Shown piece after piece: positions 3,155 through 64,000 of a stretch of DNA of 64,000 nucleotides. The DNA is from Isurus oxyrinchus (lineage: Eukaryota), in contig JANJGN010000011.1 of assembly GCA_026770705.1 (NCBI GenBank), positions 92,628,001-92,692,000 on the forward strand, given 5' to 3'. The notes beneath the pieces were generated by a model, which saw only the letters and a program-made list of their open reading frames with translations, had not been told where the DNA came from and searched no databases. Every line of letters starts with the position of its first letter. Position 1 is the stretch's first letter. The translations under genes and the position numbers were made by a program.

Positions 3155-4828
3155 CCCCCAGGGTCACCTGTGGGGCCCTGAAAGGAGCCACTGACGTAAA
3201 AATTGAACGCCAGAGTCCTTTTCATGGCCACATGGCACCAAATCCTGTAGCAACTGGCAGATGTGACCGACCAGTTCCCTAGACATGCGCAGTCTTCGGC
3301 AACATTACAGTGCAGTGCCAGGGAAAGGGCTGCACAATGGTTGAGGCGAGTTGCAGGGCCAGGGGGTGGGGGAAGAGCTGCACTGTAGTTGAGGCAAATT
3401 GGGGAGGGCAAGTGCTGCACTGCGGCTGAGTGTGGTACACAAACGCCTGCGGTGGGGGTTCTCAGTCATCTGCAGAGTAGCAAGCACTGTCTATAGACCC
3501 TGGGTCTAGCTTGGCACTGACCAGCAATTGCGTGCTGTGGCTCTTCAGTGGCGTGTGTGGGAATCCCAGCCATCCCTTCTTCCTGAGGGTGCTGCTCCTC
3601 CCTCTGCACAGCCAGGCACCTCCGTCATTCTCTTCTCCTTCGTCTCCACTCTCTGTAAGCCATGAGGCATACAACTAGGTCACCAGGCTCCATTCTGCTG
3701 ATGTACTCCTCCTGCAGGATGAAAGAAAGAGATGCATGGATTAGCATGTGTGTACTGAGAACCTCTATTGATTAAGCCTGAAGGCCCCTTAATGCATCCC
3801 AGAGAGTGCTGGCCATCACTTGGATGGTCAGAGTTCAATGCGCTGCATGGCTGCCCAAAACCCCACCCACCTCCACCCAACTCCACTTGACCAATTGGCT
3901 GCAGCTTTGCCCATTGGACTGCATGCTGTGCTCTTAGCTCAGGAGCAGGCATTCTCCTAACCCGCTCTGCAAGGCTGCACTGTTAGCTTGAACGATGAGA
4001 GAGACTGGTCCAAACAATTGCAAGGGACCGTGACTGCTCCACCAGTGACTGCTCCATGGCCAGCTTTCGCAAGGAAATTGTACATTGTGCCCAGTTATCC
4101 TATTGTTCTGAAGTCCAATAAAACGCTCATTAATTTGCAGTCTGTGCCCAAGGGGTGAAAAGCTGTGGAGCAATTGGCGGCACTTTCGTGACTCTGCGTT
4201 GCTTGAGTGGGCAGATAAGCTACAGGCCTGGCTCCAAGCATGCCAATGAGGCTGTGCTTGAACTGTCTCAGCTGCAGAGGAATGGTCACTTTATACAAGG
4301 TTTCCCTAATGTGTGGCTTTGTTTCACCACCCCCGCCCCCTGCAGGTGTTTGTTTACTACCCTCAACTGCAGTGCAGCCCTTGCCCCCACCAACTTGCCT
4401 CAACCACAATACAGCCCTTTCCCCCCTACCCCCCACCCTGCCCAACTCACCTCAACCACAGTGTAGCCCTTGCTCTGGCACCGCACTGTCATCTAGCTGG
4501 GAAAATGCAACTTGCCTGTGCCGCAGCCTGAATACGCGGTGCCTCAACACTGAGGTCCAACAGGTGACCCTTGAGAGTGCTGTGCAATATTACTGATGAA
4601 GCGTGGGGGGATGATTCCAGCGAGCTGGGCTTATAATGATATGCGGATGTATTGCAATGAAATTCCCAACGTGCGGCAGCAGGAAACGCAGCCCGCCTTT
4701 GGCGTGCAGAACAGACGATTGCAAACTTGTTTCACAATATCGTAAAACCGAGTTTTGACCTTCCTGCCATATTGTCCACTCATGTCTGCCAAGACACCCG
4801 ACACCAGCGGGCACAGAAAATTCCGCCC
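3155..4828 (-). mobile_element. Harbinger fragment: transposase-side terminus and transposase N-terminus
   Basis: Terminus rc GGGCGGAATTTTCTGTGCCCG matches 39767 and 7177. Reads CCRRLRMSRELVGHICQLLQDLVP...AFNFYVSGSFQG and is collinear with 39767-41400. Confidence 0.85.
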
Positions 4829-5413
4829 TCTGTTCCTGTCCTATTCACCTCACTGGATAAGTTTTCAGTGACCACGTTACCGTGGGACACAGCCAGTACC
4901 TGGTTTGCTCAACATCAGGAATCCAGACAGGCTTAATTCTTTGGACTTTTCATCATACAGGCATAGTGCCAGCACTTGCTAAGTATTTTTTCAGTTTTTG
5001 TGAGTATTCAACAATGGTTCACATTCAACAGTCTCATCCCTCAGCTGCTCACTGATGCTGTTCAATTGTGCAATTACATTTAGAAACCTTTTAGAAAATG
5101 CCAAGAATCTGTATCATGACACTTGGCTTTACTCGGAATGGAGGCTTTTAGATTCTCTGTTTTCACTCCATAAATGGAAGTCTTTTCATCTGCAAAAATG
5201 TTTTGATGCAGAGCATTTAGGGAAAAATGTGAATGCATTCTGCACCCCTTTTCTCCTCTGTTTGATACACACACATCCAAAAACAAATTCATCAAATGAA
5301 ACTGGAGAATAGCACTGATTGCATCAATGTCACTACCAATGACATGTCTTTAATGAAATTAAATGAGGTAAAATTGTGCAAAAATTTGCTATGTGTCATC
5401 TTGACTAATGCTT

Positions 5414-5470
5414 GGGTCTGATTTTAACTCTGTGCAAGTGGGTGGGTTTTAATGGGTTAAAATCAAGCCC
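5414..5470. mobile_element. 57-bp micro-MITE with Harbinger-type TIRs
   Basis: GGGTCTGATTTTAAC...GTTAAAATCAAGCCC, a 13/15 inverted match resembling the GGGCTGGATTTT termini elsewhere in the window. Confidence 0.55.
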
Positions 5471-5939
5471 GTGGTACAAAACACGTATGTTCGGCTGCTT
5501 GGCTTAAAATCAAAGAATGAATTCCAGGTGGTGATGTAATCTAAGATCATAAAAGGTCGATAAGAAAGGTCACACTGCATGTAGTTTGCACAAAAATGGC
5601 AGTGCTTTCCAGGTTAGTGAAGTGTGACTGGGTTCATTCTTGATATGCATGACTTTGTCATCTGTATGTTGATCCTTTGCAACTTTTATCCAAAGCCACA
5701 TAATCAGCTTCTATATCTCTGCTATTTTGCACCAGCTCTCTCCCTACTTACTCTGAACCATTATACTGTTTATCTAACTTCCAGTCTTTCATGAGCTGCT
5801 AAACACTGGGAAGCCTGCAACCATCATCTTCGTCCCCCCTTCACAAACTCCATATGTTTGCTACTGATCTCATCTCCCTCCCTGACATGCCTCAGGATGA
5901 ACTGGGTTGGGCTTGGCATTCTGTTCAATCGCAAACTAG

Positions 5940-7844: not shown

Positions 7845-7970
7845 AGCAGATGCTGGAAATCTGAAATAAAAATAGAAAATGCTGGTAAAATTCAGCAGTT
7901 CTAGCAACATCTGTGGAGGGAGAAACAGAGTTAATGTTTCGAGTCCATATTGTTCTTCTTCAGAGCTAAA
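7845..7970 (-). mobile_element. Isolated PLE 3' tail with hammerhead-like motif (7929-7967)
   Basis: rc AGCT-CTGAAGA-A-GAACAATATGGACTC-GAAA-CATT-AACT followed by CCACAGATG..CTGCTGAATTTT..CAGATTTCCAGCATC, as in the other PLE tails. Confidence 0.8.
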
Positions 7971-8154: not shown

Positions 8155-10450
8155 TGAACCAGATTTTATGGGGTATTCTTCGCCGGCTAGCAGCCACACT
8201 TTAAGACTTGTTCCAGGTTCGAACAGGTTGGGTATGTTTAATCACCTCGGTGTGAATGCATCTAATGCTCACCCTGCATGAACCTTTCCCTGTTTCCACC
8301 GCAGCTGAACATTGCTGGAATTAACTTGCTTGTGATCGGTGAATGCTCCTGGTAAATCACGTGATGCTCTGATTGCTTTGTGTGTGTAATCAATGGAACA
8401 GTGTACTTGTGGGAAGTCAGTCAGCGAATGCAAACCCAATTGCCTAATTACTTTGACTGTCATAGAATCATAGAATAGTTGGGGCACAGAAGGGGAACAT
8501 GCAGCCCGCCATGTCCTTGACAGCTCTCTGCAAAAGCAACTCAGCTGGTCCCACTCACAAACCCTTGCCCTGAAGCCTTAAATTTCTTTCCTCTTCAGTT
8601 GCTGATCTAATTCCTTCTTGAAAGCCAGGATTGTATCTGCTTCCACCAAGGTAGCGCATTCCAGATCTAACCACATGCTGTGTAAAAAGGTTTTTCCTCA
8701 TGTTGCCAATGGTTTTTTTGCTAATCACTTTAAGTCAGTGTCCTCTGGCTCTTACACCAATGAAAACAATCAGGCACCTCATCATTTTGAATACTTCTAT
8801 CAAATCTCCTCCCAATCTTCTTCAATCTATCTATATGGTTGAAGTCCCTCATCCCTGAAACCATTCTCATACATCTTTCCTGCATTGTTCCTAAAGTCAT
8901 CACATCCTTCCTAAAGTGAGGTGCCCAGAATTGGACAAAATTCCAATTGAATGTTGAAGCCAAAAGAGTTTTTATAAAGGTTCACTATAATTTCCTTGCT
9001 TTTGTACTCTGCACCTTTATTTATAAAGCCCAGGATCACAAATATCTTTTTAACCACTTTTTCAACTTGCTGCACCATCTTCAATGATTTGTGGACATAT
9101 GCCCCAGGTCCCACCTTCTGCAATCGGTGGGCACTGGAGGGGCTGAACTGCATCATCAGTCCCCAAAATGGGATTTTATTTTAAATTTGATAAGTTACCT
9201 TTAAAGATTTGTTTTTTGTTATATGCCCTCTGCTCCTACACCTGCTTTAGAAATTTTCCCATTATTTTATGTTTCCTCTCCTCACTCTTGCTATCACTTT
9301 TTTACATTAAATTTCATCTGCCACATGTCCATCTATTCCACCATGCTTTGTCGCCTTGAAGTTTATCTCCACCCTCCTCATAGTTCACAATACTTTCAAA
9401 GTTTTGTGTCATCTGCAAATTTTGAAATTGTGCCCTGTAAACCCGAGTCTCAGTCATTAGTATAGATCACAAAAAGCAGTGGTCTTAGCAACTAGCCCTA
9501 GGGAACCCCACTTTATACCTTCCTCCAGTCCAAAAGAACTGTTCCCCTCTATGCTCTGTTTCCTTTCACTCAGTTAACTCTCCATCTATCACAGCACAAG
9601 TTTACAACCTCCCAGTGCTGCAACAATCCATCTGTTACCTGCTTTATGCATTTATGTACAGCAGAGGATGACTTTGATACTTTAGTAGCAGCAGTCGTGC
9701 CTTGAAAGGGACCAAAGGCAAAACAGTTGAGGGTTGTTACGACTTTCACAGTAGCTGGCAGTGCGTGGTAACCAGGTCCAGCAGGGAGTTGGTCTTCCTC
9801 TAGAAAGCTGCAGATGTCTGCAAACAGCTGATGTGACAACCTCAGTCTATGAAAGCACAGCTCTTCCAAGAGGTCAAGGTAAACCTTATTAGGCATGTAG
9901 GGCAAAGTCAACCTCTCTGTTCCCCTTTCTAATATCCACCTCATTCACTCTCCATAGCCCTTGCTGCTGCTGCCAATTGTCTTCCTCATTCATAGTACCA
10001 CCACTCCTAAAGTTATCTGTTGAAGACTCCAAATTGTACTAATATGTCTCTCAGAACAAGTACACTGACCAAACCATCTTCCAAAGTGAACTGCGAAAAT
10101 ACCTGTGAGTACTGATCCTTTATTCAGATTGGGACTCCTGACTTTTAACCATGCCCATTAAATCATAAGAAAAAGGAACAGGGAGTTAGCCATTTGTTCA
10201 GTTCTGCATCCTTTTTATTGTCAAACCCCGAAAACTGTGCATGAGGCGTTTAGTTCAAATTGTGGTAGTAATCTCACTAAATAACCTAAATGTAAAGATT
10301 AGAGTCACTAACCTGCCTTTCTAAAGTGAGGGCTACTTGGACACCCCCAAACTCACTAGTTAAACAGGAAGCAGCAGCTCACCCACAACCTTCTCTCAAC
10401 TGTCTTGGGGATGGAGGTGGTATGCGGGGTGGGGGTTAGAATTTCCCCAA
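8155..10450 (-). mobile_element. Degraded Harbinger transposase remnant split by a CR1 insertion
   Basis: 9570-9944 reads LEELCFHRLRLSHQLFADIC...KVVTTLNCFAFGPFQG...AVHKCIKQVTDGL and continues at 8270-8460 as DFPQVHCSIDYTHKAIRA...NVQL. Outer boundaries are approximate. Confidence 0.75.
8462..9586 (-). mobile_element. 5'-truncated CR1 LINE
   Basis: ATAGAATCATAGAAT tail at 8462, VQFWAPHFRKDV and the ILGFINKGAEYKSKE RT C-terminus. An unrelated filler lies at about 9113-9228. Confidence 0.9.
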
Positions 10451-16556: not shown

Positions 16557-17661
16557 GACTTAAAGTGGGATGCATAGCTAACTGTAATGTGTGATACATG
16601 CCTAATGCAAAATTTATAATTCTAGTGATATATTTCTTTTAATTTTCTTTCCTTTCTCATCTTTCTCTGTCTCATGGCAGTCACTCGACTCCAACTAAAG
16701 AAATGGCCAGATGATCCACTGTAGCACCTCTCTTGAAGCTGCCACCAACTGGGTGTGAGGAGCGAGGCTGGTTTCTGCCTCCAGTACAGCTGGGATAAAT
16801 AAACAGGATTCTGGCCTCTGAACATAAAACGAAGATGTGCAATCCATTTCTTTGCAGAACTTCAAAAGTTTGCTATCACAAGTTCAGCATGATGATTCAC
16901 TTAAAGCGAGTAATCAGAATATTTTACATACACTGTTTTGGAAATCTTAATATTTGGACAAACTTTCCAAATGATGTAACTACGTTCCATCAGCAAAACA
17001 CAGCCAGATAATCTATTCTCAGTATTAACATCATTGCACAAAAGAATGCTATGAGGTGTATCTAAGACTAAAATAAGGAACGTTATTTATGCTAAGATAT
17101 GCTAAATGCCTGTTTTGGGGAACAAGCTATATGTAAAACACTTTTGTAGGGGCGGTCTGTTTACACAGAAAGTTTTGCTGAGTGAGTTTTAGGTTGTGAG
17201 TTGTACAATTAATTTCTGTTTCATTTCACAATGAGAGTAATTTTAACAAACAAGGAAAGGTGGATTGAGCCACAGGGAAAGTAAAAAAAAAAAATAAGAA
17301 TTTTAAACCCAACACCAAGCCACCTCCTATGACCCATGCTGAACTTGTGATAGCAAACTTTTGAAGTTCTGCAAAGAAATGGATTGCACATCTTCGTTTT
17401 ATGTTCAGAGGCCAGAATCCTGTTTATTTATCCCAGCTGTACTGGAGGCAGAAACCTGCCTCGCTCCTCACACCCAGTTGGTGGCAGCTTCAAGAGAGGT
17501 GCTACAGTGGATCATTTCTTTAGTTGGAGTCGAGTGACTGCCATGAGGCAGAGAAAGATGAGAAAGGAAAGAAAATTAAAAGAAATATATCACTAGAATT
17601 ATAAATTTTGCATTAGGCATGTATCACACATTACAGTTAGCTATGCATCCCACTTTAAGTC
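16557..17661. repeat. Long inverted repeat of non-repetitive-looking DNA: arms 16557-16891 and 17335-17661, 443-bp spacer
   Basis: The arms are reverse complements, differing by 2 substitutions and one 8-bp indel (GCCAGATG, present only in the left arm). Confidence 0.97.
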
Positions 17662-18157
17662 AACAACTTCAGATCATGAACTCTCTTCTCAACCCTTTTT
17701 GATCCCCTTTTTCAAATATTTATTTTTAAATTTTCATATATACATTTTTTTCCCACCTATTGCTATTATCATTTTAAAAATTTATTTCTATTCATTGTTT
17801 AATCCCCACCTTTTAGCCTATTTTGATCTCTTCTCCCACACCGTCCCCTCCCCGCAACCTACTCCCACTAGGGCCATCTGTCACTTGCTCATCCTGCTTT
17901 CTACTCTTAATGTCACCATTAGCACCTCCTTTAGCCAGTATCACCACCCTTTCAACCTTTTGTTTATGACCTTTTTTGCAATCTCTCCTTTGCCTCCACC
18001 TATCACTGGCCTTCTATCCAGCTTCATCTGTCCCACATATATTTCACCACGTTTCTACTTCTCTTTAGTTCTGAAGAAGAGTCATCGGGACTCGAAACGT
18101 TGACTCTGTCTTTCTCTGTCAGACTTGCTGAGTTTTTGCAGCGATTTTCATTTTTGT
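17662..18157 (+). mobile_element. Heavily 5'-truncated PLE (3' UTR and tail only)
   Basis: Starts (TC)AACAACTTCAGATCATGAACTCTC, matching 57618 and 37060, and is collinear with 57620-58135. Confidence 0.9.
18067..18105 (+). ncRNA. Minimal hammerhead-ribozyme-like motif with canonical core
   Basis: AGTT-CTGAAGA-A-GAGTC(atcgg)GACTC-GAAA-C-GTT-GACT, with a perfect 5-bp stem II. Confidence 0.75.
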
Positions 18158-18789
18158 ACTAAACCACCTCCAATTTTCAGTGAATGCTGTTATCAGGGAG
18201 CAGGCAAACAATCTGCTGTCAAGATGTGGGTCGATCAGGGTTATCTTTTAGGAGGCTTTATAGCCCTATTTTTCATACATTGGAGACTGGGATTGCCAGT
18301 GCTTGGGAATTGTGGTAGTTGAAAGGAGGAGGGAAGAGCTGGATGAGGAGCAGAGGTGCTTCTCCCTGACCCAACAAGTGAGCCTCTTCACCTTCCCCCT
18401 CCAGTCCCCAGCTCTGACTAAGACTCTCCTCCACCTCCTTGATCAGTTGAAACAACTGTAACCCCCCCTCCCCCACTCCACGTCCTGCAATGTCAGTCTT
18501 ACCTATCTTCTTCCCACGTCCTTTTCCTCCCAACAGGCTGATGGTGGGAAAGTTAATGGAAAAAATTTAAAAGACATCCTGCAATTAATTTCTGCAGGAC
18601 ATTGGGGAAATCCACACTTTTGGGTTTTTGGTCTGGAAATTTCCTCAACACAACCCACTATGTTCCTGTGCCTGCCCCCCCCCACCCCCACCCCATTCAC
18701 CATCACACCCACCCCAGCATCCATCTCTCTTCACAGCCCTAAGTACACATCAGAGCTAATGAGTTCTTGATCTTGGATGGACAGCTAGA

Positions 18790-20920: not shown

Positions 20921-23900
20921 TACAGGTGGGAATAGCAAAGTACAGGTTCTTATAGGAGCTTCCATAGTCAGGTTTCTGGCCCTGTCAGGGTGGTACCCAC
21001 TGGAGGAGATTTGACTGCCCAGCCATAAGTCCATTGACTTTTGGTGGGACAGGATGATCCCGGCGGCGGGCAGCACCAGAAAATCCCGCTCAGGGGGACA
21101 GATAGACATTTCTGTGACCGTCATCGTGAGCCCCACATGATGTGTTACTTCCCTGATGCCTGGGTAAAGGACATCACAGAGTGGATGTAGAATATTCTGC
21201 AAGGGGAAGGGAGTGAGCCAGAAGTTGTGGCACACAGCAGTGCCAACGACATAGAGAGGGCAGGCATTTAGGTCCTAAGTTCAGATTTTCAGGATCTAGG
21301 GAGGATATTAAAAAGTAGGACCTCAAAGGCAATAATCTCTGGATTATTCTCAGTGCCACTCTCTAGCAAGAGTAGAAGTAGGAAGATTTTGAGGGTCAAT
21401 GCATGGCTTGAAGCATGGTGAGGAAGGGAGGACTTCAGGTTCTTGGCACATTGGGATCAGCTCTGACACTAAAGACATCTATTTAAAAGGGACAGGTTGC
21501 AACTCAACAGGACTGGAACTAAAGTCCTCACAGGGAGGTCCATTATTGTGGTTGGGGAGGGTTTAAACTAAACTTGCAGGGAGGGTGGACACCAACATAT
21601 AGAAGTTGAAAAGAAGAATAAGGTGCATAAAGTTAGAATACTAGGCAATATAAAAGAGGACAATAGTTTCATATATATAGGAGCAGACTAAGTGGAAATA
21701 TTAAGTTATTAGGTGAGTTCAGAGTATTGGAGAAAGTAATCAAGTCTAAATATAGGTTCCATACATGTACGTAAATGTGCGAAGCATGGTAAGTAAGATA
21801 GGTGAGTTACAAGTGCAGATTGCCATGTGGAAATATTGTGGCTATAACAGACACCTGGCTTAAAGAAAGGTAGGCCTGGGTACTAAATATTCCTGGATAC
21901 AAGGTATTCAGGAAAGATAGGAAAGGAAGTAAAGGGGAATAAGGTGGTGCCATTGATTAAGGAGAACATTACCATTTTGGAGAAAGAGGATGTGCCAGAG
22001 GGGTCAAGGACAGAATCTATTTGGAACAAAAATGATGCAATTACATTGCTTGGTGTACTTTTGGGTGCCAAGCAGCAGAAAAGATTAGAGGCAAATTACA
22101 GGGAGCTGCAACAATTACAGCATAGCTAAAATGAGAGATTTTTCCAAATATAGACTGGGATAGTTGTAATGTAAAGGGCAGAGAGGGCCAAAGTGAATGA
22201 GTGTGTTCACAAAAATTTTCTACAGCAGTATGTTCCCATTTGAGCGAGAAAGGAAGCACTACTAGACCTGGTTCTCGGGAATGCGGTGGACTGAGTGCAT
22301 CAAATGCCAGTAGGAAAACCTTTAAGCCACAGTGATCATTGTACCATAAGGTTTAGGTTGGCTATAGAAAGGAACAAAGAACAATCCAAAGTAAGAATAA
22401 TTAACTGGAGAAAAGCCAACTTCAATGGGTAGAAAATGGATCTGAGCTAGATCAACTGGGATCCAAGGTTGGCAAGTGAAACCATATCCGAACAAGAATT
22501 ATAGAAGAGATAGTTTAGTCATAGATAAGGTATCTTCCATGAAATGGAAAGGCAAGGCTAACAAATCCAGAGCCCTCTGGATAACAAAAGTGCTAGAGAT
22601 TAACCTGAAGAAAAAGCGTGCTTATGACAGGCAAGCAATACAACCAACCGAGGGCCAGGCTAAATATAGAAGGTTCAGAGGAAAAGTGAAAAAGCAGATA
22701 AGGAAAGCAGAGAGAATGTATGAAAAGAAACTAGCAGCTAACATAAAAGCGAATCCCAAAGTCTTCCTTAGGTGTATAAATAGTAAAGGGGTGGTGAAAG
22801 GGGAGTGGGGCCAAGTAGAGACCTAAAAGGGGATATATGCTTGCAGGCAGGAGGTATAGCTGAGGTAGTAAATGTATACTTTGCATCTGTTTTTATGAAA
22901 GAAGAAGATGCATGTCAGTTCATGGTAAAAATGTAGGTAACATAGATATCTGAAGGGTTTAAAATTGCTAAGAAGGCAGAATTGGATAAGGCTGTGTGAG
23001 TTGATAAGGCAGGAATAGATGGGATGCATCCAAGGATACTGAGGGAAGTGAGAGTGGAAATTGCAGAGGCACTGGCTACAATTTTTCAGTCTTCCTTGGA
23101 CTTGGGGTTGTGCCTGAGGACTGGAGAATTGTAAATATTACATTCTTGTTCAAAAAAGGGTATAAAGATAAACCCAGCAACTACAGGCTAGTCAGTTTAA
23201 CCTTGGTGATGGGGAAGCTTCTAGAAACCATAACTCGGGACACAATTAATTGTCATTTGGGCAAATGTGGATTAAGGAAAGTCACCATGGATTTCTTAAT
23301 AGCAAATCATGTTTAACTGACATGCTGGAGTTTTTTGGTGAGGTAAAAGGGTCGGTGAGGGTAATGCTGTTGATATTGTGTACATGGACTTCCAGAAGGC
23401 ATTTGATAAAGTGCCGTACAACGGACTGGTAAGCAAAGTTATAACTCGTGGAATAAAAGGGGAAGTAGTAACATGGATACAAAATTGACTGAGTGACAGA
23501 TGACAAAGAATAGTGGCTAATAGATGTTTTTCAGGCTGGAGAAAGGTATGTAGCGGAATACCCCAGGAGTCGGTGTTAGGATCCTTGCTCTTCCTGATAT
23601 ATATTAATGGCCTAGACCTTGGTGTATAGGGCACAGTTTCAAAATTTGTAGATTAAAAAATGCTTGGAAGCATTGTGAATACTGAGGAGGATAGCATAGA
23701 ACTTCAAAAGAACATTGACAGGTTGGTGGAATGGGTGGGCATGTGGCAGATGAAATTTAATGCAGAAAAGTGTGAATTGATTCATTTTAGTAGGAAAAAT
23801 ACAGAGAATGTAAAATAAAGGGTACAATTCTAAAGGGGGTGCAGGAGCAAAGGAACCTGGATTTATATGTACATATATCATTGAAGGTGGCAGGACAGGT

Positions 23901-46147: not shown

Positions 46148-46414
46148 GTCCTCCATGCAGCAGTGGTAGTCTGGAAACACCAAGATATGTGCTTGTGGCT
46201 GGACTTTAAATATGGTGCCCAGTGTGATGCAGCAGCGAGGTGATGGCAGACAGACAAATGAGAGCCCGCTAGCGTTGGAAACGGGAATGCATAAATAATG
46301 TGGCGGGTTGGGAATGAAATGGCATGAAAACCCACCATCACAGCCAATGGGTAAAATGTCATTTTATCTGCCTGCTACCGCACCTAGTGCAAATCTGGGA
46401 AAACTTCACCCCAA

Positions 46415-46725: not shown

Positions 46726-49700
46726 GTAGTGGAGTAGTTCATGAAGCAGATGTACAGGAGTGTGGAATAGTACCTATGGTGGGCTGTTGAAGCACTCAGT
46801 ACTGTCAACTGGAGTAGAGAGACTGGGACCAGGAAAAAAAATATTTATTTTTGGTCAGTGCTGGAGTGCTGTTTTGGGCTGCATTAAAATGCTTAAGGTG
46901 GAGTTTGCTGAGAGAGGAAGTCCAGTGAAGAGGGAAGGAGGTGATCCTTACATTTTCTACCTTTCATCAGTAAGAAGAGCGGCAGCCTTGATAACTGGGA
47001 CTTGGTGAGTATTTCTTCTGTACTTAATATTTTCTAAACTAGAGGAAGTAAAAGTAAAGGGAGTAATTTAAGAGTAAGTCATGACAAGTCAGCTTGACCA
47101 AGTGGAATGCTCCTCCTGTGCAATGTGGGAAGTCAGGGACACTTCCAGTGTCCAGGGTGACCACGTGTGCAGGAAGTGTCTCCAGCTGCAGCTACTCAAA
47201 ATCCACATTTCAGAGCTGGCGCTGCAGCTGGAATCACTGTGGATCATCTGCAAAGATGAGATCTTCATGGATAGCACGTGGTAGTCACACCACAGGTAAA
47301 GAGTGCACAGACAGAAAGGGAATGGGTGATGCCAGACGGAGTAAAAGCACTGGGCAGGTAGTGCAGGAGTCTCCTGGATAATGCTGGGGGAGATTGTTTC
47401 TCATGGCAATGCAGCAAGAGCCAAGTTGGTGGCACCATGAGTGGATCAGCTGCATGGGGGGAGAAAAAGAGTGGGAGAGCAATAGTGATAGTGGATTCTA
47501 TCATAAGGTGAACAGATAGATGTTTCTGTGGCCGCAGACGTGACACCTGGATGATATGTTGCCTCCCTGGTGCCAGGGTCAAGGATGTCACTAAGCGGCT
47601 ACAGGACATTCTGGTGAACAGCCAGAGGTAGTGATCCATATTGGTGCCATATGGTAAAAAGAGAGATGAGATCCTGAAAGCAGAATATAAGGATCTAGGA
47701 AATAAATTAAAAAGCAGGACTTCAAAGATAGCAATTTCAGGATTACTCCCAGTGCCACATGCTAGCGAGATCAGGAATATAAGAATAGACCAGATAAATA
47801 CGCTCTTCTGAGTGCCCAGCTATAACCTTCTTAATGATCGATTCTAATAACTTCCCCAAAACAGATGTCAAACTAACTAGCCTATAGTTTCCTGTTTTCT
47901 GCCTCCCTCACTTCTTGAAGAGAGGGAAACAAAGATAGGAATGAAAGACAGAAAAGTAGAAAGCAAAAGTGGAAGGCAGAGGAAACAAGGGCCAGCAGCA
48001 AATGGGGTCATAGTTCAAAAAAAAATGTGTAAAAATGTTGAAAGACAAGTCAAAAGGTATTGTATCTGAATGCACAGAGCATTTGCAATAAGGTGACAAA
48101 TTAACAGTGCAAATAGATGTAAATGGATGCGATATGATTGTGATTATGGAGACATGGCTGCACGGTGGGAACTGAATATCCACGGTACTGGATATATAGG
48201 AAGGGCAAGAAAGATGGAAAAGGAGGTGGCGTTGTTAGTTAAGGATGCAATCAGTGCAATAGTGAGAGAGGATATTGGCTTAGAAAATGTAGATGTAGAA
48301 TCAGTCTGGGCAGAGCTAAGTAGCAACAAAGGGAGGAAAACATTAGTGGGAATTGTCTATAGGCCTTCAAACAGTAGTGGTAAGGTAGGGGATGACATTA
48401 AAGAGGAAATTAGAGATGCATGTAACAAGGATGCTACAATAATCATGGGTGACTTTAGTCTACATATAGAATGGGCAAACCAAATTAGCAATAATATTGT
48501 GGCAGGCGAATTCCTGGAGTGTGAATGAGATGGTTTTTTAAACCAGTACATCAAGGAAGCAACTGGAGAACAAGCTATCCTAGATTTGGTATTGTGCAAT
48601 GAGAGGGGGGGTAATTAATAATCTTGTTATGTGGGGTCCTTTAGGGAAGACTGACCATAACATGATAGAATTCTTCATTAGGAAAGAAAGTGAAGTAGTC
48701 TGATCTAAAACTAGGGTCCTAAATCTAAACAAATGAAACCACAAAGGTTTCAGGCATGAGTTGGCTAAGATAGATTGAGGAACTTCATTTTAAGGCATGA
48801 TTTTGCACAGCAATGGCTAATATTTAAGGAACAAATATATGCATTGCAACAGTTATACATTCCTTTCTGGCACAAGAACACAACAGGAGAAGTGGCCCAA
48901 CCAGGAATAACAAAATAAATTAAGGGTAGTATTAGATCCAAAAAGAAGTAGTATAAAGTTGCTGGAAAAGGTAGCATGCCTGAGGATTGGGACCAGTTTA
49001 GAATTCAGCAAAGGAGGACCATGAGATTGATTGAGAGGGGAAAATATATGAGGGTATGAGAGTAAACTTGTAAGGAACATAAAAGCTTCTATAGTTATGT
49101 AAAAAGAAAAAGATTAGTGAAGACAAATGTAGGTCCCTTACTGTCTGAAAGAAGAGAATTTATGATAGGGAACATGGAAATGGCAGAGCAATTAAACAAC
49201 TTTTATTTCTGTCTTCACAGAGGAAGAAACAAATAACTTCCCAGAAATGCTAGGGAACCAAGGGTCTAGGGTGAAGGAGGGATTGAAGGAAATCAGTATT
49301 ACTAAAAAAAAGTGCTGGAGAAATTAATGGGACTAAAAGCCGATATATCTGCAAGGCCTGATAATCTACATCCCAGGGTTCTAAAGGAGGTAGCCATGGA
49401 AATAATGAATGTGTTGGTTGTCATCTTGCAAAATTTGGTAGATCCAGTCTTGGCATATTGGAAAGTGGCAAATGTAACCCCACTATTTAAAAAAAAGGAG
49501 GGAGGGAATTACAGACTGATTAGTCTAACATCAGTAGCAGAGAAAATGCTAGAGTCTATTATAAAGGATGTGATAACAGGACACTTAGAAAATATAAACA
49601 TGATTAGATAAAGTCAACATGGGTTTATGAAGGGAAATCATGTTTGACAAACCTGCTGGAGTTTTTTGAGGACACAACTAGCAGAATAGATAAGGGAGAA

Positions 49701-50880
49701 ACAGTGGATGTGTATTTGGATTTTTAGAAAGCGTTTGATAAAGCCTCACATAAGAGGTTAGTGTGCAAAATTAAATCACATGGAATTGGGGGTAATATAT
49801 TGGCATCAAGTGAGATTTGGTTAGCAGACATAAAGTAGGAATAAATGGGTCTTTTTTGGAGTAGCAGGCAGTGAATAGTGGGACACAACAGGGGTCAGTG
49901 CTTGGGCCCCAGCTTTTTACAATATATATAGGAACCAAATGTAATATTTCCAAGTTTGCTGACAACATGAAACTTGGTGGGAATTTAAGTGGTGAGGAGG
50001 ATGTTCTGTGGCTTCAAGGCAATTTAGACAGGTTGAGTGAGTGGTCAAATACATGGCAGATGCAATAAAAGTAGATAAGCATCAAGTTATCCTCTTCGGT
50101 AGGAAAAACAGAATAGCAGAGTATTATTTAAATGGTGATAGATTGGGAAATGTTGATGTACAAAGGGACCTGAGTGTGCTTGTACACTGCCACTGAAAGC
50201 AAGCATGCAGGTGCAGCAAGCAGTTAAGAAGGCAAATGGCATGTTGGTCTTCATTGCAACAGGACTTGAGTCCTCACAGGAGCAAGGTTGTCTTACTGCA
50301 GCTGTACAGGGCCTTGATGAGAAAACCTATAAAATTGTGTGCATTTTGTTCTCCTTACCTAAGAAAGGATATACTTGACAAAGAGGGAGTGCAGGGAAGG
50401 TTCACCAGACTGATTCCTGGGATGGTAGGATTGTTGTATGAGGAGAGATTATGTCGGCTGGGACTGTATTCACTGGAATTTAGAAGAATGAGAGGAGATC
50501 TCATTGAAATGTATAAAATTCTGAGGGCTGGACAGATTGGATGCAGGGATGATATTTCCTCTGGCTGGGAGTCTAGAGCAAGGGGTCACAGTCTCAGGAT
50601 ATGGGGTAGGCCATTTAGGACTGAGATGAAGAGAAACATCTTCACTCAGAGGGTGGTGAACTTGTGGAATTCTCTACCGCAGAGGCTGTGGAGGCCAAGT
50701 CACTGATTATATTTAAGAAGGAAATAGTTAGATTTCTAGATTGTAAATGTCTCAAGTGGTATGGGGTGAGAGTGGGAGTATGGCATTGAGAAGGAGAATA
50801 AGCCATAATCATATTGAATGGCGGAGCAGGCTCGAAGGGCCGAATGACCTAGTCCTGCTCCTATTTTTTATGTTTCTATG
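46725..50880 (+). mobile_element. Near full-length decayed CR1 LINE
   Basis: ORF1: MTSQLDQVECSSCAMWE..HVCRKCLQLQLL and AIVIVDSIIR. ORF2: LYLNAQSI, IVYRP, IMGDF, PDNLHPRVLKE, QGSVLGPQLFTIYI, SKFADNMKL, FTQRVVNLWNSLP. 3' GGCTCGAAGGGCCGAATG..TATGTTTCTATG. Confidence 0.94.
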
Positions 50881-52229: not shown

Positions 52230-54125
52230 ATCCTCGGCTTATTTTCTGTACTGTGAACTGTATTCTTAATCTGTCTCCTATCTCCTCCACCCTCACCTCC
52301 ATTAACAAGTGCAAAGAGTTCATGGGCTTCTTTGTCACTTTGAAACCATCAGCTATGTTTGCTACTTCCATCCCTTCACCTGTCCCACCTGGCCTAACTT
52401 CCTCTGAAGCTCCCCTCCTGCTCTAGCCTTGAACTTGCATCATTCTATAGTTTCTCTCCCATCTCCCCTCATGCCCACTCTGAGCTCATCTTGTTCATGA
52501 GTCCCACCTCATGCTCCCTCAACTCTATTTTCACTAAGCTGCTGACCACACAATTTCCCTTCCCAGTTTCCATGCTAGCTGATATTGTTAGTCGTTCTCT
52601 CATTTCAGGTACTCTTCATTTCTCCTTCAAATCTGCCCTTGTCACCCCTCTTCTCAAAAGAACAATTTGACTATCCTTGAGAACTACTGCCCTTCTTCAA
52701 CTTCCTTTTCCTCGCCAAAGTTCTTGAATATGTCACCTCCCAAATCAATGTCCATCTGTCCCAGAACTCCATGTTTGAATCCCTGAAATCAAATTTCCAT
52801 TCCTGCAACAGGACCAAAATGCCTATTATCATAGTCACAAATGACATCCTGTGTGACTACAGCAATGTTAAACCTTCCCAGTTAAGCAATGCCTCAATTT
52901 TAAAACTATTATCCTTGCTTTCAAATCCTTCCATGGCCTCAGCCTTCTCAATCTGTCTATAATTTTTGAAACAATGAATCACATTATTGCTGATAAAAAA
53001 GACATAGCTAAGCTTTTCGACTTGCACTTATCAGGACACTCGCAAGAATACCAATATAAGTGGAAAACAACAATTTATAATGGATGTGAAGAGTGTTGAT
53101 TCATTGGCAAGTGGCGTTGCCATGGAAAATGCACAACTAATGGTGACTGACTTAACTGTCAAGCAATGTTTGAAATTTAAACCAGGCAGTTTGACACTGA
53201 TTGGTCAAGGCATTGCGCTGAGGAATGAATCGGCGACTGGCTGTCACTTATTATGTTTAGCTGAAACAGGTGCAATGTATGTATATGTTCTTTCTGTCTG
53301 CAAAGAACAGGGTCCTGTGTATTAATATATGTAGTTCCAGCTTCTTGTACATGCAAATGCGCCACACTGTGAGCCTAACTAACAATCTTAAATTGGTTGT
53401 CACATTATCCTCCTCCAACACCTCTCCGGAATCATCCAGCTGGATGGGACTGAACTTGCCTGGTTCCAGTCTTATCTAATTATGGCCTGATAATCACCTG
53501 TAATGGTTTCTTGTTCCATGCCTGTATCATTACCTCTGATATACCCCAAGGATCTATCCTTCGTTCCTTTCTATTTCTCATCATGTTGCTCCTCGTGACA
53601 TAATCTAAAAGAACAGCATTAGTTTTCACTTGTATGCTGACAACATTCAGCCCTACATCACTACCGTCTCTCTTGACTCCTCCAGTGCCTCCAACTTATC
53701 AGACTGCTTTTCTGACATCCTGTATTGGGAAAACAGTAGTCTCCTCCATTTAAATATTGGGATGACCAAAGCCATTGTCTTTGGTCCCCACTACAAACTC
53801 CACTCCCGAGCTACTGAGTCCATCTCTCTCCCTGGCCCCTGTCTGAGGCTGAGCAGATTGTTTGCAAACTTGATGTTATATTTGACCTCAAGATGAGGTT
53901 CCAGCCACATATTTTCACCATTACTAAGAACATCTATTTCCACCTCCATAACATTAGCCGACTCTGCCCTGCCTCTGCTCGTCTGCTGCTGAAAACCTCA
54001 TCCATGCCTTTATTACCTCTATACTTGACTATTTCAATGCACTCCTGGCTGGCTACTCACATTATACACTCCATAAAGTTGAGGCCACCCAAATCTCTGT
54101 TGCCTTTGTTCTTACTTGTACAAAG
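52230..54125 (+). mobile_element. Degraded L2 LINE RT region interrupted by a PLE
   Basis: LSFKSALVTPLLK, FLAKVLE, IVTNDILC, PQGSIL, YADNIQPY, LHLNIGMTKAIVFG, YFHLHNISRL. Confidence 0.85.
52965..53403 (-). mobile_element. Second PLE family: GIY-YIG C-terminus and 3' tail with a degenerate hammerhead motif (about 53005-53038)
   Basis: DNQFKIVS*AHSVAHLHVQEA..YINTQDPVLCRQKEHIHTLHLF, and rc TGTC-CTGATAA-GTGCAAGTC-GAAA-AGCT-TA. Confidence 0.75.
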
Positions 54126-54499
54126 TTCCACTTGTAATCTGTTCCCTTTCCTTTACTACTTCTTTCATTCTCATTTACTGGTCCAGATCTTCTGGTTGAA
54201 ATAATGGCGAACTCTGAGATGTTTGCTGCTATTGAGGGCTGCAACAGCATTGGCAGTTTGGGGAAGTCAATTTATACCCAAACTCATAACTTCTGGTTCA
54301 CCAGAAATGTCTTCATGGGAGCCCCAGCTGATGGTCCCATTGGGATTGTCAGCACATAAACTTGGGCTGTTTGCCAGGGATTTCCCTACTGTTTTTACAC
54401 AGATTTATTAGTGCTGTTCCAAGCAAGTGTACAGCTTGCTTCAGGAGCCCAGCACTTAATCAGTGTCAAAGTACTCCAACATCACCCCTAGAGTCTTTT

Positions 54500-54645
54500 T
54501 TTACTCTTTCACTGGGTGTGGATGAAGCTGGATAGGCCAGTATTTATTGCCCATTCCTAAATGCCCTTGAGAAGATGGTGGTGTGTTGCCTTGTTGGACT
54601 GCTGCAGTCCATGTGGTGTAGGTATGCCCACAATGCTGTTAGGAA
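54500..54645 (-). mobile_element. 3' tail fragment of the 43931-45508 LINE family
   Basis: Reverse complement of 45360-45500 (ATTTATTGCCCAT..CCCTTGAGAAG..GGTGGTG). Confidence 0.8.
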
Positions 54646-56603: not shown

Positions 56604-58171
56604 TCATGCTTTCATCTGGACCTGGAAAAATTTATGAGTTTTGCTTCCAATTTCCACCCCTCCATCATTTTCACATGGTCCATCACTGACATTTCCCTTC
56701 CTTGACCTGTCTCAATTTCTGGTGATAGACTATCGACCAATATCCATTACAAGCCCACTGACTCCCACAGCTACCTTGACTACAGCTCCTCATACCCCGC
56801 TTCCTGTAAGGACTCCATCCCATTCTTTCAGTTCCTTTGCCTCCGTTGCAGCTGTTCCAATTATGCCACTTTCCAAAACAGTTTTTCTGACATGTCTTCC
56901 TTCTTCCTTAACCAAGGTTTTCCACCCACAGTGGTTGACAGGGCTCTCAATTGTGTCTGGCCCATCTCCCGCGCATCTGCCCTCACACCTTCCTCTCCCT
57001 CCCAGAATCATGATAGGGTCCCCCTTGTCCCCACTTAACACCCCACCATCCTCTACATTCAAAGGATCATCCTCCACCATTTCTGCCAACTCCAGCATGA
57101 TGCAATCACCTAATGCATCTTCCCTTCACCCCCCTTGTCAGGATTCTGTAGGGACTGTTCCCTCCGGGACACCCTGGTCTACTTCTCCATCACCCCCTAC
57201 ACCTCAACCCCCTCCCACGGCACCTTCCCATGCAACTGCAGAAGGTGCAACACCTGCCCCTTTACTTCCCCCCTCCTCACCATCCAAGGGCCCAAACACT
57301 CCTTTCAAGTGAAACAGCATTTCACTTGCACTTACCTCAACTTAGTCTACTGCATTCGCTGCTCCCAATGCAGTCTCCTCTCCATTGGAGAGACCAAACG
57401 CAGACTGGGTGACCGCTTTGCAGAACACCTTCGGTCTGTCTGCAAGCATGACCCAGACCTTCCTGTCGCTTGCCATTTCGACACACCACCCTGTTGTCAG
57501 GCCCACATGTCCGTTCTTGGCCTGCTGCAATGTTCCAGTGAAGCTCAATGCAAACTGGAGGAACAGCACCTCATCTTTCAATTAGCACTTTACAGCCTTC
57601 CGGACTTAAAATTGAGTTCAACAACTTCAGACCATGAACTCTCTCCTCCATCCTCACGCCATTTTTGATCCCCTTTTTTCTGATAAATATATATTTTTAT
57701 ATTTTTTTCTTTTCCCACCTATTTCTATTATTATTTTTAAAATTTATTTCCATCCATTGTTTTATCTCCACCTTTTAGTCTATTTCGATTCCCTCCCCCC
57801 ACCCTACCCCCACTAGGGCCATCTGTCACTTGTTCATCCTGCTTTCTACCCTTAATGTCACCATTAGCACGTCCTTTAGATAAATCACCACCATCAACAC
57901 CCCTTTGACCTTTTGTTTATGACATCTTTGGCAATCTCTCCTTTGCCTCCACCTATCACTGGCCCTCTATCCAGCTCCAGCTGTCCCACCCCCCTTAAAC
58001 AGCTTATATTTCACCACATTTCTATTTCTCTTTAGTTGTGATGAAGAGTCATACGGACTCGAAACGTTAACTCTGTCTTCCTCTCCACAGATGCTGTCAG
58101 ACCTGCTGAGTTTTTCCAGCAATTTTGTTTTTGTTTCAGATTTCCAGCATCCGCAGTATTATGCTTTTATC
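56604..58171 (+). mobile_element. 5'-truncated PLE with 8-bp TSD
   Basis: AAATATCT at 56596-56603 and 58172-58179. CNCRRCNTC..LVYCIRCSQCSLLSIGETKRRLGDRFAEHL. Hammerhead-like motif at 58034-58072 with mutated core GTGATGA. Confidence 0.94.
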
Positions 58172-58449: not shown

Positions 58450-58829
58450 TGTCATTGGCATGGTCAACATTTATTGCCCATCCATAGTTGCATTTGAGAA
58501 GGGCAATTGACTTAAATATATTCCTGTATGCATAAGCGAAGCTTCAAATGTTAAAGTTGTGTTAATGTTGTATTTTCTTTTAAAGAAATGCACTTAAAGT
58601 ATAAAAGATAATGCGATCTAACTCTGTACGTGCATTCGGAAACTGAAGTCCTAAAACAGAGATTGCTAAATTACTATAGTCCAGTCTAGAAATCAACCAC
58701 TACAGATGAACGCCACCTGCACGGAGAAATTTGTAGTTCCTTAAACATGATTAAGTATCGAGTACCCAAAATTCAAAGTGTAAAATATGAATCTCACAAA
58801 GTACTCCCCCTACAATAATGTAAAGTGGT

Positions 58830-59294
58830 GGGCTAGTTATGCATCAGACTAGGCGGAAGTGTTCTGTTCGGGGGCGGCACCAAGAGCGGTGCGGACACCA
58901 AGACTAAACTATAGAACTGACAGAATCAAAGCGAGCAGTATGACGGCTTTTAATACATAGACGGCACTCTGCTTTCCTCCCAGCTTAAAAATCTATAAAA
59001 ACTCAAGGCCTCTCGCACTAAGTCCTGGCTGCAAAATAGGGACAAAGAAAAACAAATACGGGATTGGATGTGTGTGGACAAGGTGCTGGGAGTTGTCTGA
59101 TTAAAGTGCTGCGCTTTTCTAAGTATTGCGGTGCATTGCTGCACATTTGGAGCGTTCCCCGGGAGCAGTTCGAGCTGCGGGCGCGGACGGCAGCGGGCTC
59201 CGGACTGGCGCGAGGCTTTGTGACGGCAGCGGTCTCCCGGCTGGCGCGAGGCTGAGTGACGGCAGTTGGAGTTGGGGTCCGGGCGCAAGCTGCA
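58830..59294 (+). promoter_or_regulatory. CpG-rich promoter and 5' UTR of the RhoGAP gene
   Basis: Marked CpG retention over about 58600-59570. ETS-like GCGGAAGTG (58853-58861), GC box GGGGCGG (58871-58877), TATAAAA (58994-59000). The TSS is not determined. Confidence 0.7.
59186..59265 (+). repeat. 36-bp GC-rich tandem repeat x2.2 in the 5' UTR
   Basis: GACGGCAGCGGGCTCCGGACTGGCGCGAGGCTTTGT / GACGGCAGCGGTCTCCCGGCTGGCGCGAGGCTGAGT / GACGGCAG at 59186, 59222 and 59258. Confidence 0.9.
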
Positions 59295-59448
59295 ATGGGG
59301 CTCCCCACTTTGGAGTTCACCGATTGTTCCCTGGACAGCCCGGATTTCAGGGATCGACTGAAAGCACATGAAATCGAGCTCGAGCGCACCAACAAGTTCA
59401 TCAAGGAGCTGATTAAAGACGGCCTTATGCTGATTAACGCGCTGAAAA
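59295..59448 (+). CDS. ARHGAP42: First coding exon of a GRAF-family BAR-PH-RhoGAP, best match ARHGAP42 (GRAF3)
   Basis: [51 protein letters not shown], a 154-nt exon with Kozak GCAATGG and a phase-1 donor A|[20 protein letters not shown] and [11 protein letters not shown] match ARHGAP42 better than ARHGAP26, ARHGAP10 or OPHN1 as I recall them. The family is secure; the paralog call is less so. Confidence 0.9.
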
Positions 59449-60720: not shown

Positions 60721-60759
60721 TATATATTATGAAAGAAGAAACACACTTCCTTGGCATCT

Positions 60760-62130: not shown

Positions 62131-63037
62131 AGTTGGTAGAAGACAGTAAATAGTATTGTACTCGAATTGGAAAGAAGATACTATTGGTGATCCACAAAGA
62201 TCCGTGCAGAGGTTTTAAATGTTCACTATACTTATTAATGACTTAGACAACATAATAGAAATCCACATATCCGGGTTTGCAGGATAGCTGAGGCATTAGA
62301 GGTATTGATAGATTAAGTGAGTGAGCAGAGCTGTGGCAGATGGATAATATGATCTCATTCATTTTGAGCCAAAAACAGATAGATCTAAGTATTTTTGAAA
62401 TAGTGGTAAGCTAGGAACAATGGAGGTTCAAAGAGATTTCGGATTTCATGTACATAGATCCCTAAATGTAGTAGTCATGTACAAAAAAATCAAGAAGTCT
62501 AATAGAATGTTAGCCTTTCTATCTAGAGGGCTAGAATATAAATGGGGGAAAGTTATTTTTATCACATTTATACAAAGCCTTGATTAGACCACATCCAAAT
62601 TACTGTGTACAGTTCCGGGCACCACAGCTTGGAAAGGATATATTGGTCTGGTGAAGTGAATATAACTCCAAGATTTTATTTACAAAGAATGATTATACAA
62701 ACTAGGCATGTATTCCCTGAAGGTTAAGGTGTGATTTCATTGAGCTTTGAAAGGAACTGTTAGGGTAGATAGAGAAAAAAACTTTCTGCTGGAGGTGGAG
62801 CCTAGGATAAGGAGACATAACCTTAAAACCAGAGGCAGGATAGCCAGTTGAACACAGGAACTCACACCATAGGATGCCTCAAACTTAGATACAATGACAT
62901 TCTAAAAGCCAATCTCAGAGCCTGTAAATTGGGGAAGAGGGTGGTAGAATTGTGGAATTCTCTCTCTCACAAAAAGCAGCAGATCACTAAATTTAATACA
63001 TTTGAATTTGAAGTTGGTAGATTTTTGCTAGCCGAGA
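62130..63037 (+). mobile_element. Degraded CR1 RT C-terminal fragment
   Basis: FTILINDLD, NRMLAFLSRGLEYK, LYKALIRPHPNYCVQFRAP, RVVELWNSL. Confidence 0.85.
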
Positions 63038-63410
63038 CATAAGAACATGATGCAGGAGTAGATCTTAGGCTCTCAGTCCTGCTCTGCTATTCAATAAAAT
63101 CATAGCTAATCTTCTACCTCAACTCTACTGTCCCCTATGATCCTCATTTTCCTTGAATCCCTTGGTGTTCAAATATATGTCAGTCTTGGCCTTGAATATA
63201 CTCAACAACTGAACATCTACAGTTATGTGGATAAGAGAATTCCAAAGATTCACAAGCTTCTGAGGGAAGAAATTTCTCCTTATCTCAGTGTTAATCGTTG
63301 CACTCCCTCCAAGAGACCACAGGTTTACAAACAGCACTCAAGATATGGTTTCACAAAAGCCTAGTGTAAATGTGCCAGGACTTCCTTACTCTTACACTCC
63401 AACTTCCTTG
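63038..63410 (-). mobile_element. CR1 3' end
   Basis: CATAAGAACAT tail and EIRRNFFPQKLVNLWNSL..FKAKTDIYL. Confidence 0.85.
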
Positions 63411-63689
63411 AAGTGATTGACTGACTGACTGATTCTTCCATAACTCCGGGCGAGTGTTCAGCAAGGAAACCAGTTGTTAACTGGCTAAGTTGGCGTCATC
63501 TCATATGTGATGTTAAACCCAATCTTGATTTGCAGATCCAGTTGCAGATATTACATGTGTAGTCACTGTTGGAGGGGTGGGTGAAGGCACTGGCTTTGTG
63601 GCATGCTCGTTTGACCTGTAGCGACTTGATTCTGTTCTCCTCAAATGTTAAGGTTGATCGATGTCAGAGACTTCTCCATTTGGATCTAT

Positions 63690-64000
63690 CCAGGTTTGTT
63701 TTTTGCCCATTTAGTGAGACCCAATTTACAGGCTCTGAGCTTGGCTTTTAGAATGTCATTGTATTTAAGTTTGAGGCCTCCTATGCTGCCGGTTCCTGTG
63801 TTCAGCTGGCTGTAGAATACTGCCTTTGGTTTGCGGGAATCCTCCATGCGAACTACTTGGCTGATCCAGTCAAGCGGAGTTGGGATGAACATGTTCTCGA
63901 TACCAGGTATGTACTTGCAAAATCTTTGTTCTTATGGATTTTGTCCTGCTGCTTGATGCTGTAGATAGATCTTAAGCAATGAAGGTGGAATGCACCTAGT
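63690..64000 (-). mobile_element. RTE-clade LINE C-terminal fragment
   Basis: LGAFHLHCLRSIYSIKQQDKI.. and WISQVVRMEDSRKPKAVFYSQLNTG..GGLKLKYNDILK, RTE post-RT motifs. Confidence 0.85.

Follow-up and report, generated by a model that had tools for sequence, protein, structure and literature searches.

Inverted local duplications interrupting transposon relics in a shark genome window: probable scars of germline repair

Pace, Sen, Batzer and Feschotte (2009) surveyed repair-mediated duplications in ten vertebrates, including mammals, chicken and zebrafish, as insertions of at least 50 bp that interrupt transposon relics and span a range of ages (PMC2671141). A donor lay within 5 kb for 824 of 1136 insertions in human, with a mean distance of 1.2 kb, and the insertions had a mean length of 162 bp, a maximum of 619 bp, and junctions with microhomologies of 2-9 nt, filler or deletion. 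The pipeline excluded gaps of more than 30 bp and, for practical reasons, donors in repeats; neither its main text nor the examined columns of its Table S1 give orientation statistics, and there is no cartilaginous fish among the vertebrates it names. In the human germline, inverted duplications accounted for 54% of 229 characterised inversion sites, and nearly all of them measured less than 1 kb and lay at most 5 kb from the other copy; they were attributed to template switching and generally had no link to retrotransposition (Sudmant et al. 2015, PMC4617611). Other systems also leave copied DNA at breaks or insertion sites. Chromosomal insertions templated by polymerase theta are AT-enriched and 3-30 bp long, their template usually lies within 30 bp, initial synthesis tracts rarely exceed 10 bp, and hairpin-primed inverted insertions are a known class (PMC7165422). 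Somatic L1 insertions have yielded four fold-back inverted duplications of 52-220 bp (PMC10191854), and class 2 templated sequence insertion polymorphisms patch a break with distant DNA, over 73-414 bp in cell lines (PMC5110952).

Here we analyse a window of Isurus oxyrinchus DNA, by which we mean the whole stretch of 64,000 nt. A preliminary description of the window had proposed three locally templated inverted insertions of different ages and was unsure whether such events had been described; they have, and the 2009 survey comes close to the check that it proposed.

Three inverted copies and their neighbourhood

The three patches and their donors are as follows.

3307..3456, minus strand: patch 1 (acceptor), 150 nt, matching 4336-4489 in inverted orientation
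4336..4489, plus strand: donor of patch 1, a variable, internally repetitive segment of the same transposon copy
17335..17661, minus strand: patch 2 (acceptor), 327 nt, matching 16557-16891 in inverted orientation
16557..16891, plus strand: donor of patch 2, 335 nt, no further match in the window
62842..62933, minus strand: patch 3 (acceptor), 92 nt, flanked at both ends by 2 nt of filler
63720..63811, plus strand: donor of patch 3, part of a decayed LINE (63481-64000, minus strand)

By BLAST, inverted pair 1 extends over 3304-3456 and 4336-4492 at 79% identity, and patch 1 itself aligns to its donor with 123 matches, 26 mismatches and 3 gap runs. Pair 2 has 325 matches, 2 mismatches (99.4% identity) and one 8-nt deletion, which lies within patch 2 at a 3-nt microhomology (CAT), and pair 3 is identical at 84 of 92 positions. 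The spacers are 879, 443 and 786 nt, and the arms have diverged by 0.20, 0.006 and 0.093 (K2P), so the copies are real and differ in age, as had been claimed.

Local templating of the patches also holds up. For all three, the only significant match of each arm in the 64-kb window is the local arm. When 400-nt blocks of the window were permuted and flipped in 100 shuffles, inverted pairs less than 1 kb apart averaged 0.65, as against four observed; two shuffles of the 100 reached at least three pairs and one reached at least four. The fourth observed pair (20006-20171 and 20370-20532), absent from the preliminary description, looks like a palindrome internal to an element, and no terminal repeats were found at its guessed ends. 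It was omitted from the event count because it extends to decaying arms of about 350 nt that flank an AT-rich core, and because it offers no related copy by which it could be polarised. No local patch in direct orientation was found in the window, where local direct matches are tandem arrays or family repeats, save one 22-mer. A listing of gaps of at least 45 nt in 14 pairs of related repeat regions, which falls short of a full census, yielded a single insert whose donor lies within 5 kb, namely patch 1; patch 3 escaped it, and the host of patch 2 lay outside its coverage. Rfam at gathering thresholds gave no match in the window, and 13 of its 16 long ORFs had no Pfam match.

Four further fillers (9113-9228, 20973-21090, 47803-47919 and 52876-52960) had been listed as being of similar size; none of the four has a donor within 5 kb in the window, and they add nothing to the count of local events.

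9110..9225, no strand assigned: clean insertion of 116 nt into a LINE, unmatched elsewhere in the window
20973..21090, no strand assigned: likely a MITE (small transposon), flanked by a probable target duplication of 3 nt
47803..47919, minus strand: piece of LINE ORF2 in inverted orientation, judged by translation and similarity to stem from a distant copy
52876..52960, plus strand: LINE ORF2 C-terminal fragment, oriented like its host, with no donor found nearby

The second of these has a 68% relative at about 33700-33800 and was rejected as a repair patch. The third is 65% identical to the local homologous region at 49440-49620, 1.6 kb away, and 58% identical to 23110-23290; it is a counter-example, in that inverted patches of this size here also stem from distant repeats. 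The fourth is 64% like another LINE family and is presumably L2-like.

Interrupted hosts and local donors

Patch 1 interrupts a DNA transposon that we take to be PIF/Harbinger-like.

3157..4835, minus strand: part of the DDE DNA transposon that hosts patch 1, 76% identical to 39766-41397

An ORF beside the related copy (41338-41808) matches Pfam DDE_Tnp_4 with an E-value of 7e-5, which is below the curated cut-off, and another ORF (28968-29720) matches the same family with an E-value of 9.5e-22. The patch is a clean insertion that cost the host 0 nt, the related copy being contiguous across the site (41220/41219), with microhomology of 1 nt at the left junction and 2 nt at the right. Its divergence is about that of its host (K2P 0.18-0.21), and with the same age it could have been inherited from a parent element.

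Patch 3 replaces 37 nt in the 3′ region of a LINE, which we take to be CR1-like, with flanks that map to 50574-50610 and 50648-50677 in a related copy. It sits 3.4 kb downstream of the BAR_3 exon, likely within the first intron of the BAR_3-encoding gene. The decayed LINE that holds its donor is presumably RTE-like.

62826..62838, plus strand: homeology near patch 3, 13 nt, 12/13 to 63820-63832 on the minus strand

The partner of this homeology begins 8 nt past the far end of the donor, and within the window only these two places match at the 12/13 level, so it is likely the annealing site. The near junction of patch 3 has no microhomology and thus fits a simple fold-back poorly.

A protein word search with an 81-residue LINE piece found nothing among 16 candidates, and an exhaustive protein search with the same piece gave 508 matches, of which the best 150 were used; among these the homologues are 31-56% identical and none exceeds 56%. 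Patch 3 and its donor share residues of less than 10% frequency at 8 of 29 positions (about 149 of the best homologues), including an L found in 1% where the family has Q or P in 94%, and an N found in 2% where the family has K in 91%. Each also carries later changes of its own. Since these rare residues are common to the patch and its neighbour, the sequence comparison favours the local copy as the donor, and patch 3 would have been copied from a neighbouring LINE that had already decayed. With homologues so distant, however, the shared residues could be traits of a subfamily.

It could also be argued that patches 1 and 3 derive from repeat families and came to lie near a relative by chance, or that patch 1 is a structural part of a non-autonomous transposon subfamily. 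Both donors are in repeats, patches from distant copies do occur (47803-47919), and patch 1 is as old as its host. Chance is nonetheless hard to reconcile with the rare residues common to patch 3 and its donor and with the block shuffles, the related transposon copy differs markedly over the segment that served as donor of patch 1, and patch 2 would be left unexplained; we consider these readings unlikely. A closer donor may lie at a distance, above all for patch 3, which is LINE sequence, and for patch 1, which is inside a transposon.

Patch 2 lies in a retroelement that we take to be Penelope-like.

17314..17327, plus strand: left target-site duplication of the Penelope-like insertion, 12/14 to 18158-18171
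17329..17336, plus strand: likely a stub left from the original 5′ terminus of the Penelope-like copy, an 8-mer whose last 2 nt are shared with patch 2
17660..18157, plus strand: 3′ remnant of the Penelope-like retroelement, 88.7% identical to 57618-58134
18158..18171, plus strand: right target-site duplication, abutting the 3′ end of the element

Proteins matched by ORFs of the family carry PF26215, and some carry PF01541 or PF00078; a six-frame reading of the patch 2 donor for an exon gave nothing recognisable. The patch has 2 nt of microhomology at both ends. The target duplication encloses both the patch and the element; its 12/14 match, which on the left reaches 17330 at 14/17, was equalled by 2 of about 20000 random draws, and both of the other Penelope-like copies that were checked have duplications of 8-11 nt. 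The stub 8-mer occurs once in each of the three other copies, where it sits upstream of the right junction by 170-171 nt; 0.3% of background 8-mers occur in all three copies and 2.4% in one, and the limits of the stub 8-mer were set after looking. From the target duplication and the stub, we infer that patch 2 interrupts the element, of which it likely replaces about 162 nt.

Our initial idea was that patch 2 was made during integration of the element, in the way that fold-back inverted duplications arise upstream of new L1 insertions, and its position agrees with this: it abuts the element with a 2-nt microhomology, at the 5′ end and inside the target duplication. The idea was demoted on age grounds. 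The arms differ at 2 of 327 positions, but the target duplication differs at 2 of 14 and the element, in a comparison of four copies, carries 24 private substitutions in 417 ungapped columns. The likely element stub to the left of the patch also argues against it, and an integration origin would need the arms to have been homogenised afterwards, or else a young subfamily with no member in the window. We therefore hold it to be improbable, and patch 2 appears to be far younger than the Penelope-like element around it. For annotation this is a caution, since an apparent 5′ truncation of a retroelement can stem from later repair.

Germline repair as the probable origin

We conclude, with a probability of about 0.85, that the three patches are independent germline repair-mediated duplications, copied in inverted orientation from 0.4-0.9 kb away and interrupting old transposon relics. 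The germline repair origin proposed in the preliminary description is supported by the interrupted hosts, the junctions and the divergences. Against it, the host lost 37 nt at patch 3 and probably about 162 nt at patch 2, more than the 1-15 nt in the table of Pace et al., whose filter allowed only 30.

In such a repair event, a broken or stalled 3′ end would prime on the nearby opposite strand, 92-335 nt would be copied, and the copied end would then be rejoined, with end joining finishing the repair. Although the enzyme is not nameable from sequence alone, aborted synthesis-dependent repair or replication template switching, with a processive polymerase, would account for the copying better than polymerase theta, which had been named as a lead mechanism. 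Theta end joining would explain the 1-2 nt microhomologies, the fillers and the 8-nt deletion inside patch 2, and it is known to make hairpin-primed inverted insertions. However, its described sizes and distances fit none of the three patches, and none is AT-enriched relative to its flanks (AT fraction 0.39 against 0.50, 0.59 against 0.64, and 0.58 against 0.62). Polymerase theta is thus a decidedly unlikely copier, and it may have acted in the final joining step. It is very improbable that patch 2 is an assembly or library chimera: amplification chimeras do have near-identical inverted arms a few hundred bases apart, as here, but two substitutions and the 8-nt deletion separate these arms, and beyond the patch the sequence resumes the element and then the matching target duplication.

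The patches are most likely neutral scars. The earlier suggestion that they seed hairpins stands only as a folding potential, and nothing points to a function. The three patches themselves are of little import, in that they are most likely neutral and their class is known.

Density and comparison with described systems

Three events in the 64-kb window give a raw density of 47 per Mb (95% interval 10-137), compared with 0.08-0.65 per Mb of transposon DNA in the 2009 survey, although our rules were looser and the window was selected. Sharks have among the lowest mutation rates measured, 7e-10 per bp per generation (PMC10587355). Because of the differing criteria, the selected window and slow shark mutation, we do not take the excess at face value, and one selected window neither shows nor excludes a signature specific to the lineage. 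The text of two further sources (PMC8082928 and 10.1101/2024.12.19.629504) offers no directly comparable rate. A tentative and rather doubtful proposal is that recognisable local repair duplications, mostly inverted, are at least tenfold denser per Mb in sharks and rays than in any vertebrate surveyed to date. If this were true, the structural repair recorded in their genomes would reach back much further than in mammals, and its rate per substitution would be far higher. Should the density apply to the whole genome, point mutation and break-repair scarring would run on different clocks in a slow-mutating lineage, and tens of thousands of dated junctions would be available for tests of mechanism, including orientation bias.

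Among the described systems, polymerase-theta insertions resemble the patches in having a local template, direct or inverted, and short microhomology, but their tracts and distances are shorter by about ten times or more (PMC7165422). Class 2 insertions have distant donors, unlike patches 1-3, and fit 47803-47919 and possibly 9110-9225 and 52876-52960 (PMC5110952). The L1 fold-back inversions (PMC10191854) and yeast fold-back insertions (PMC11724301) place an inverted copy of a flank at a repair junction, as here; the former arise with the insertion, whereas patch 2 appears younger than its element, and the latter are mostly 5-34 bp, as against 92-327 nt. The inverted duplications of Sudmant et al. 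are nearly all likewise shorter than 1 kb, with the other copy no more than 5 kb away, but they are polymorphic human calls picked as inversions, and the shark events are old, with K2P up to 0.20 (PMC4617611).

The patches lie within the size, spacer and junction ranges of the 2009 survey (PMC2671141). Each exceeds 50 bp and interrupts one repeat copy, which is seen against related copies for patches 1 and 3 and is likely for patch 2; each has a donor that lies more than 50 bp but less than 5 kb away, is shorter than about 620 bp, and has junctions of the microhomology, filler or deletion type with no poly(A) tail. The donors are single-copy reciprocal best matches within the 64-kb window, those of patches 1 and 3 being in repeats. 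In one of the three the host halves are no more than 30 bp apart on the consensus (0 nt, the others 37 and about 162 nt), which leaves a strict count of 0-1 under the survey's filters, although the 30-bp rule is a search filter and lies outside the mechanism. The class is therefore already known from humans and other vertebrates, and what is new here is the lineage and possibly the high density.

Inverted pairs in the window and their setting

Comparing the window with itself, we found four inverted pairs with a spacer under 1 kb and none with a spacer of 1-2 kb. The three pairs in the preliminary description are real and correctly placed, and in each case the local arm is the sole significant match within the window:

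3307-3456: patch 1, inverted copy of donor 4336-4489, in a DDE transposon copy; arm 150 nt, spacer 879 nt, K2P between arms 0.20
17335-17661: patch 2, inverted copy of donor 16557-16891, beside a Penelope-like remnant at 17660-18157; arm 327 nt, spacer 443 nt, K2P 0.006
62842-62933: patch 3, inverted copy of donor 63720-63811, in a LINE 3' region; arm 92 nt, spacer 786 nt, K2P 0.093

The suggestion that they differ in age is borne out by these distances. When 400-nt blocks of the window were permuted and flipped, a mean of 0.65 pairs arose per shuffle, with at least three in 2 of 100 shuffles and at least four, the number observed, in 1 of 100. The fourth pair (core 20006-20171 versus 20370-20532, 78%, with an AT-rich 198-nt spacer), which the initial list had missed, widens around its AT-rich core to decaying arms of ~350 nt that form a long palindrome at 19822-20714, and it is more likely built into a non-autonomous element. 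Separately, an exact 22-nt direct repeat (35607-35628 and 37832-37853), 2.2 kb apart or ~0.67 kb once an intervening retroelement is discounted, may be a short templated insertion in direct orientation.

CpG dinucleotides are depleted in the window (observed/expected 0.27) and decayed repeats are abundant. The best six protein matches of a retroelement ORF all come from sharks, rays and skates, which points to an elasmobranch as the likely source. The repeat classes backed by analysis are DDE transposase, GIY-YIG/RT relatives and RT/endonuclease LINEs, which we presume correspond to the family labels Harbinger, Penelope, CR1, L2 and RTE. The host gene, which we take to be a GRAF/ARHGAP42-like BAR_3-domain gene, contributes one exon, and other features accompany it:

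59295-59447 (also given to 59448), + strand: BAR_3 exon, first coding exon of the host gene (Pfam BAR_3 E 4e-13)
59186-59265: GC-rich 36-nt tandem repeat upstream of this exon
39766-46410: long DDE transposon copy with a 1576-nt LINE-like insertion at 43931-45506, which has short relatives at 26599-26892, 54496-54645 and 58456-58502
42169-42459: near-tandem duplication of old date in the DDE transposon copy (133 nt, 69%); similar tandem units of 72 nt lie at 18776-19080
18071-18098 (+) and ~7936-7963 (-): hammerhead-like minimal cores, identified by pattern, within the 3' end regions of Penelope-like elements; neither matched Rfam at gathering thresholds

Junctions and ages of the three patches

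Patch 2 adjoins a 498-nt retroelement remnant, and a 14-nt target duplication (12/14; equalled in 2 of ~20000 random draws) encloses both; both other element copies checked have target duplications of 8-11 nt. Each of the three other copies contains the left-junction 8-mer a single time, 170-171 nt upstream of where the right junction falls, as against 0.3% of background 8-mers found in all three, although the 8-mer limits were chosen post hoc and two of its bases may be part of the target duplication instead. Either end shows 2-nt microhomology. The simplest reading of these alignments is an old, short element insertion in which ~162 nt would have been replaced much later by the inverted patch. 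Patch 2 could instead have formed during integration by the kind of fold-back described for L1 insertions, where inverted copies do arise at that step (PMC10191854), but this needs an extra step to account for ages that do not match: the remnant carries several private indels and 24 private substitutions in 417 columns, whereas between the arms there are 2 mismatches in 327 positions and one 8-nt deletion. Because its arms are near-identical, patch 2 is predicted to fold with its donor into a long single-strand hairpin; the proposal that such insertions seed hairpins holds to that extent, and the folding reveals no function.

Both flanks of patch 1 align to a related transposon copy that runs through the site without a break, which makes the patch a clean insertion, with junction microhomology of 1 and 2 nt. 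The donor lies in the same transposon copy as the patch, in a segment that is variable and repetitive within itself. Since the arm divergence (0.20) equals that between host and relative (K2P 0.18-0.21), patch 1 has roughly the same age as the element, and a parent copy may have passed it on.

When the flanks of patch 3 are mapped to a related LINE, 37 nt separate them there, so the 96 nt found in the window stand in place of those 37 nt. The donor is also a LINE, decayed and from a different family than the host. At 8 of 29 positions, patch and donor share a residue that has a frequency of <10% among ~149 homologues; two of these positions are strongly conserved, the shared residue reaching 1% and 2% there, and each sequence has later changes of its own. 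Copying from a neighbour that had already decayed would leave such shared rare residues; they could also be subfamily traits, the homologues being just 31-56% identical. The left flank shows 12/13 homeology to sequence 8 nt past the far end of the donor, and microhomology is absent at the near junction. This is easier to reconcile with invasion or fork switching than with simple fold-back.

Other fillers and mechanism

Four further fillers had been grouped with the patches, but none has a local donor in the window self-comparison, and they add nothing to the local count:

9110-9225: source not placed by within-window matching
20973-21090: likely a MITE
47803-47919: inverted LINE piece, from a distant copy because its similarity to the homologous stretch 1.6 kb from it is just 65%; in a weak related-copy alignment, 47803-47930 appears to replace part of the host's first ORF rather than being a simple insertion
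52876-52960: piece of a further LINE family, directly followed in the same LINE relic by a ~440-nt insert (52960-53400)

They show that patches also come from distant templates, a process known from class 2 templated insertion polymorphisms (PMC5110952).

The patches are inverted local copies that interrupt their hosts, with the junctions described and different divergences. To produce them, a free 3' end would prime on opposite-strand DNA within 1 kb, 92-335 nt would be copied, and the strand would be released and the ends rejoined, with 0-162 nt of host DNA lost during repair. Polymerase theta, one of the mechanisms first proposed, leaves templated insertions described as 3-30 bp, AT-rich and typically templated within 30 bp (PMC7165422); the patches do not fit this pattern in size, distance or composition. 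The likelier source is therefore synthesis-dependent repair that was aborted, or template switching during replication, leaving aside the final joining enzyme.

Density and relation to known duplications

Three patches in 64 kb correspond to 47 per Mb (95% interval 10-137), or 16 per Mb (0.4-87) counting one patch, against a published 0.08-0.65 per Mb of transposon DNA, given as minima (PMC2671141). The probability of three per window is 1e-5 at 0.62 per Mb and 0.007 at 6 per Mb. Looser criteria here, and picking the window from many, could partly close this gap; slow substitution in sharks (PMC10587355), which would keep old scars legible, can close part of it too. A lineage-wide excess of local repair duplications is a possibility. 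Among the openly readable papers listed, judged by title and opening of the abstract, none surveys duplications of this kind in cartilaginous fish.

The class itself is known. Pace et al. (2009; PMC2671141) surveyed inserts interrupting transposon relics, the same target as here, and report 824 human cases with a donor within 5 kb (mean length 162 bp, mean distance 1.2 kb). Microhomology, filler and deletions are described at the junctions, and nine other vertebrates yielded additional cases. Sudmant et al. (2015; PMC4617611) describe 54% of characterised human inversions as inverted duplications <1 kb within 5 kb. The filters described by Pace et al. (PMC2671141) dropped repeat donors and gaps >30 bp, and none or one of our three patches would pass them. 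In the biological features that can be assessed here, patches 1-3 nevertheless work like the cases in both reports, and we conclude that they are a new instance of this known class.
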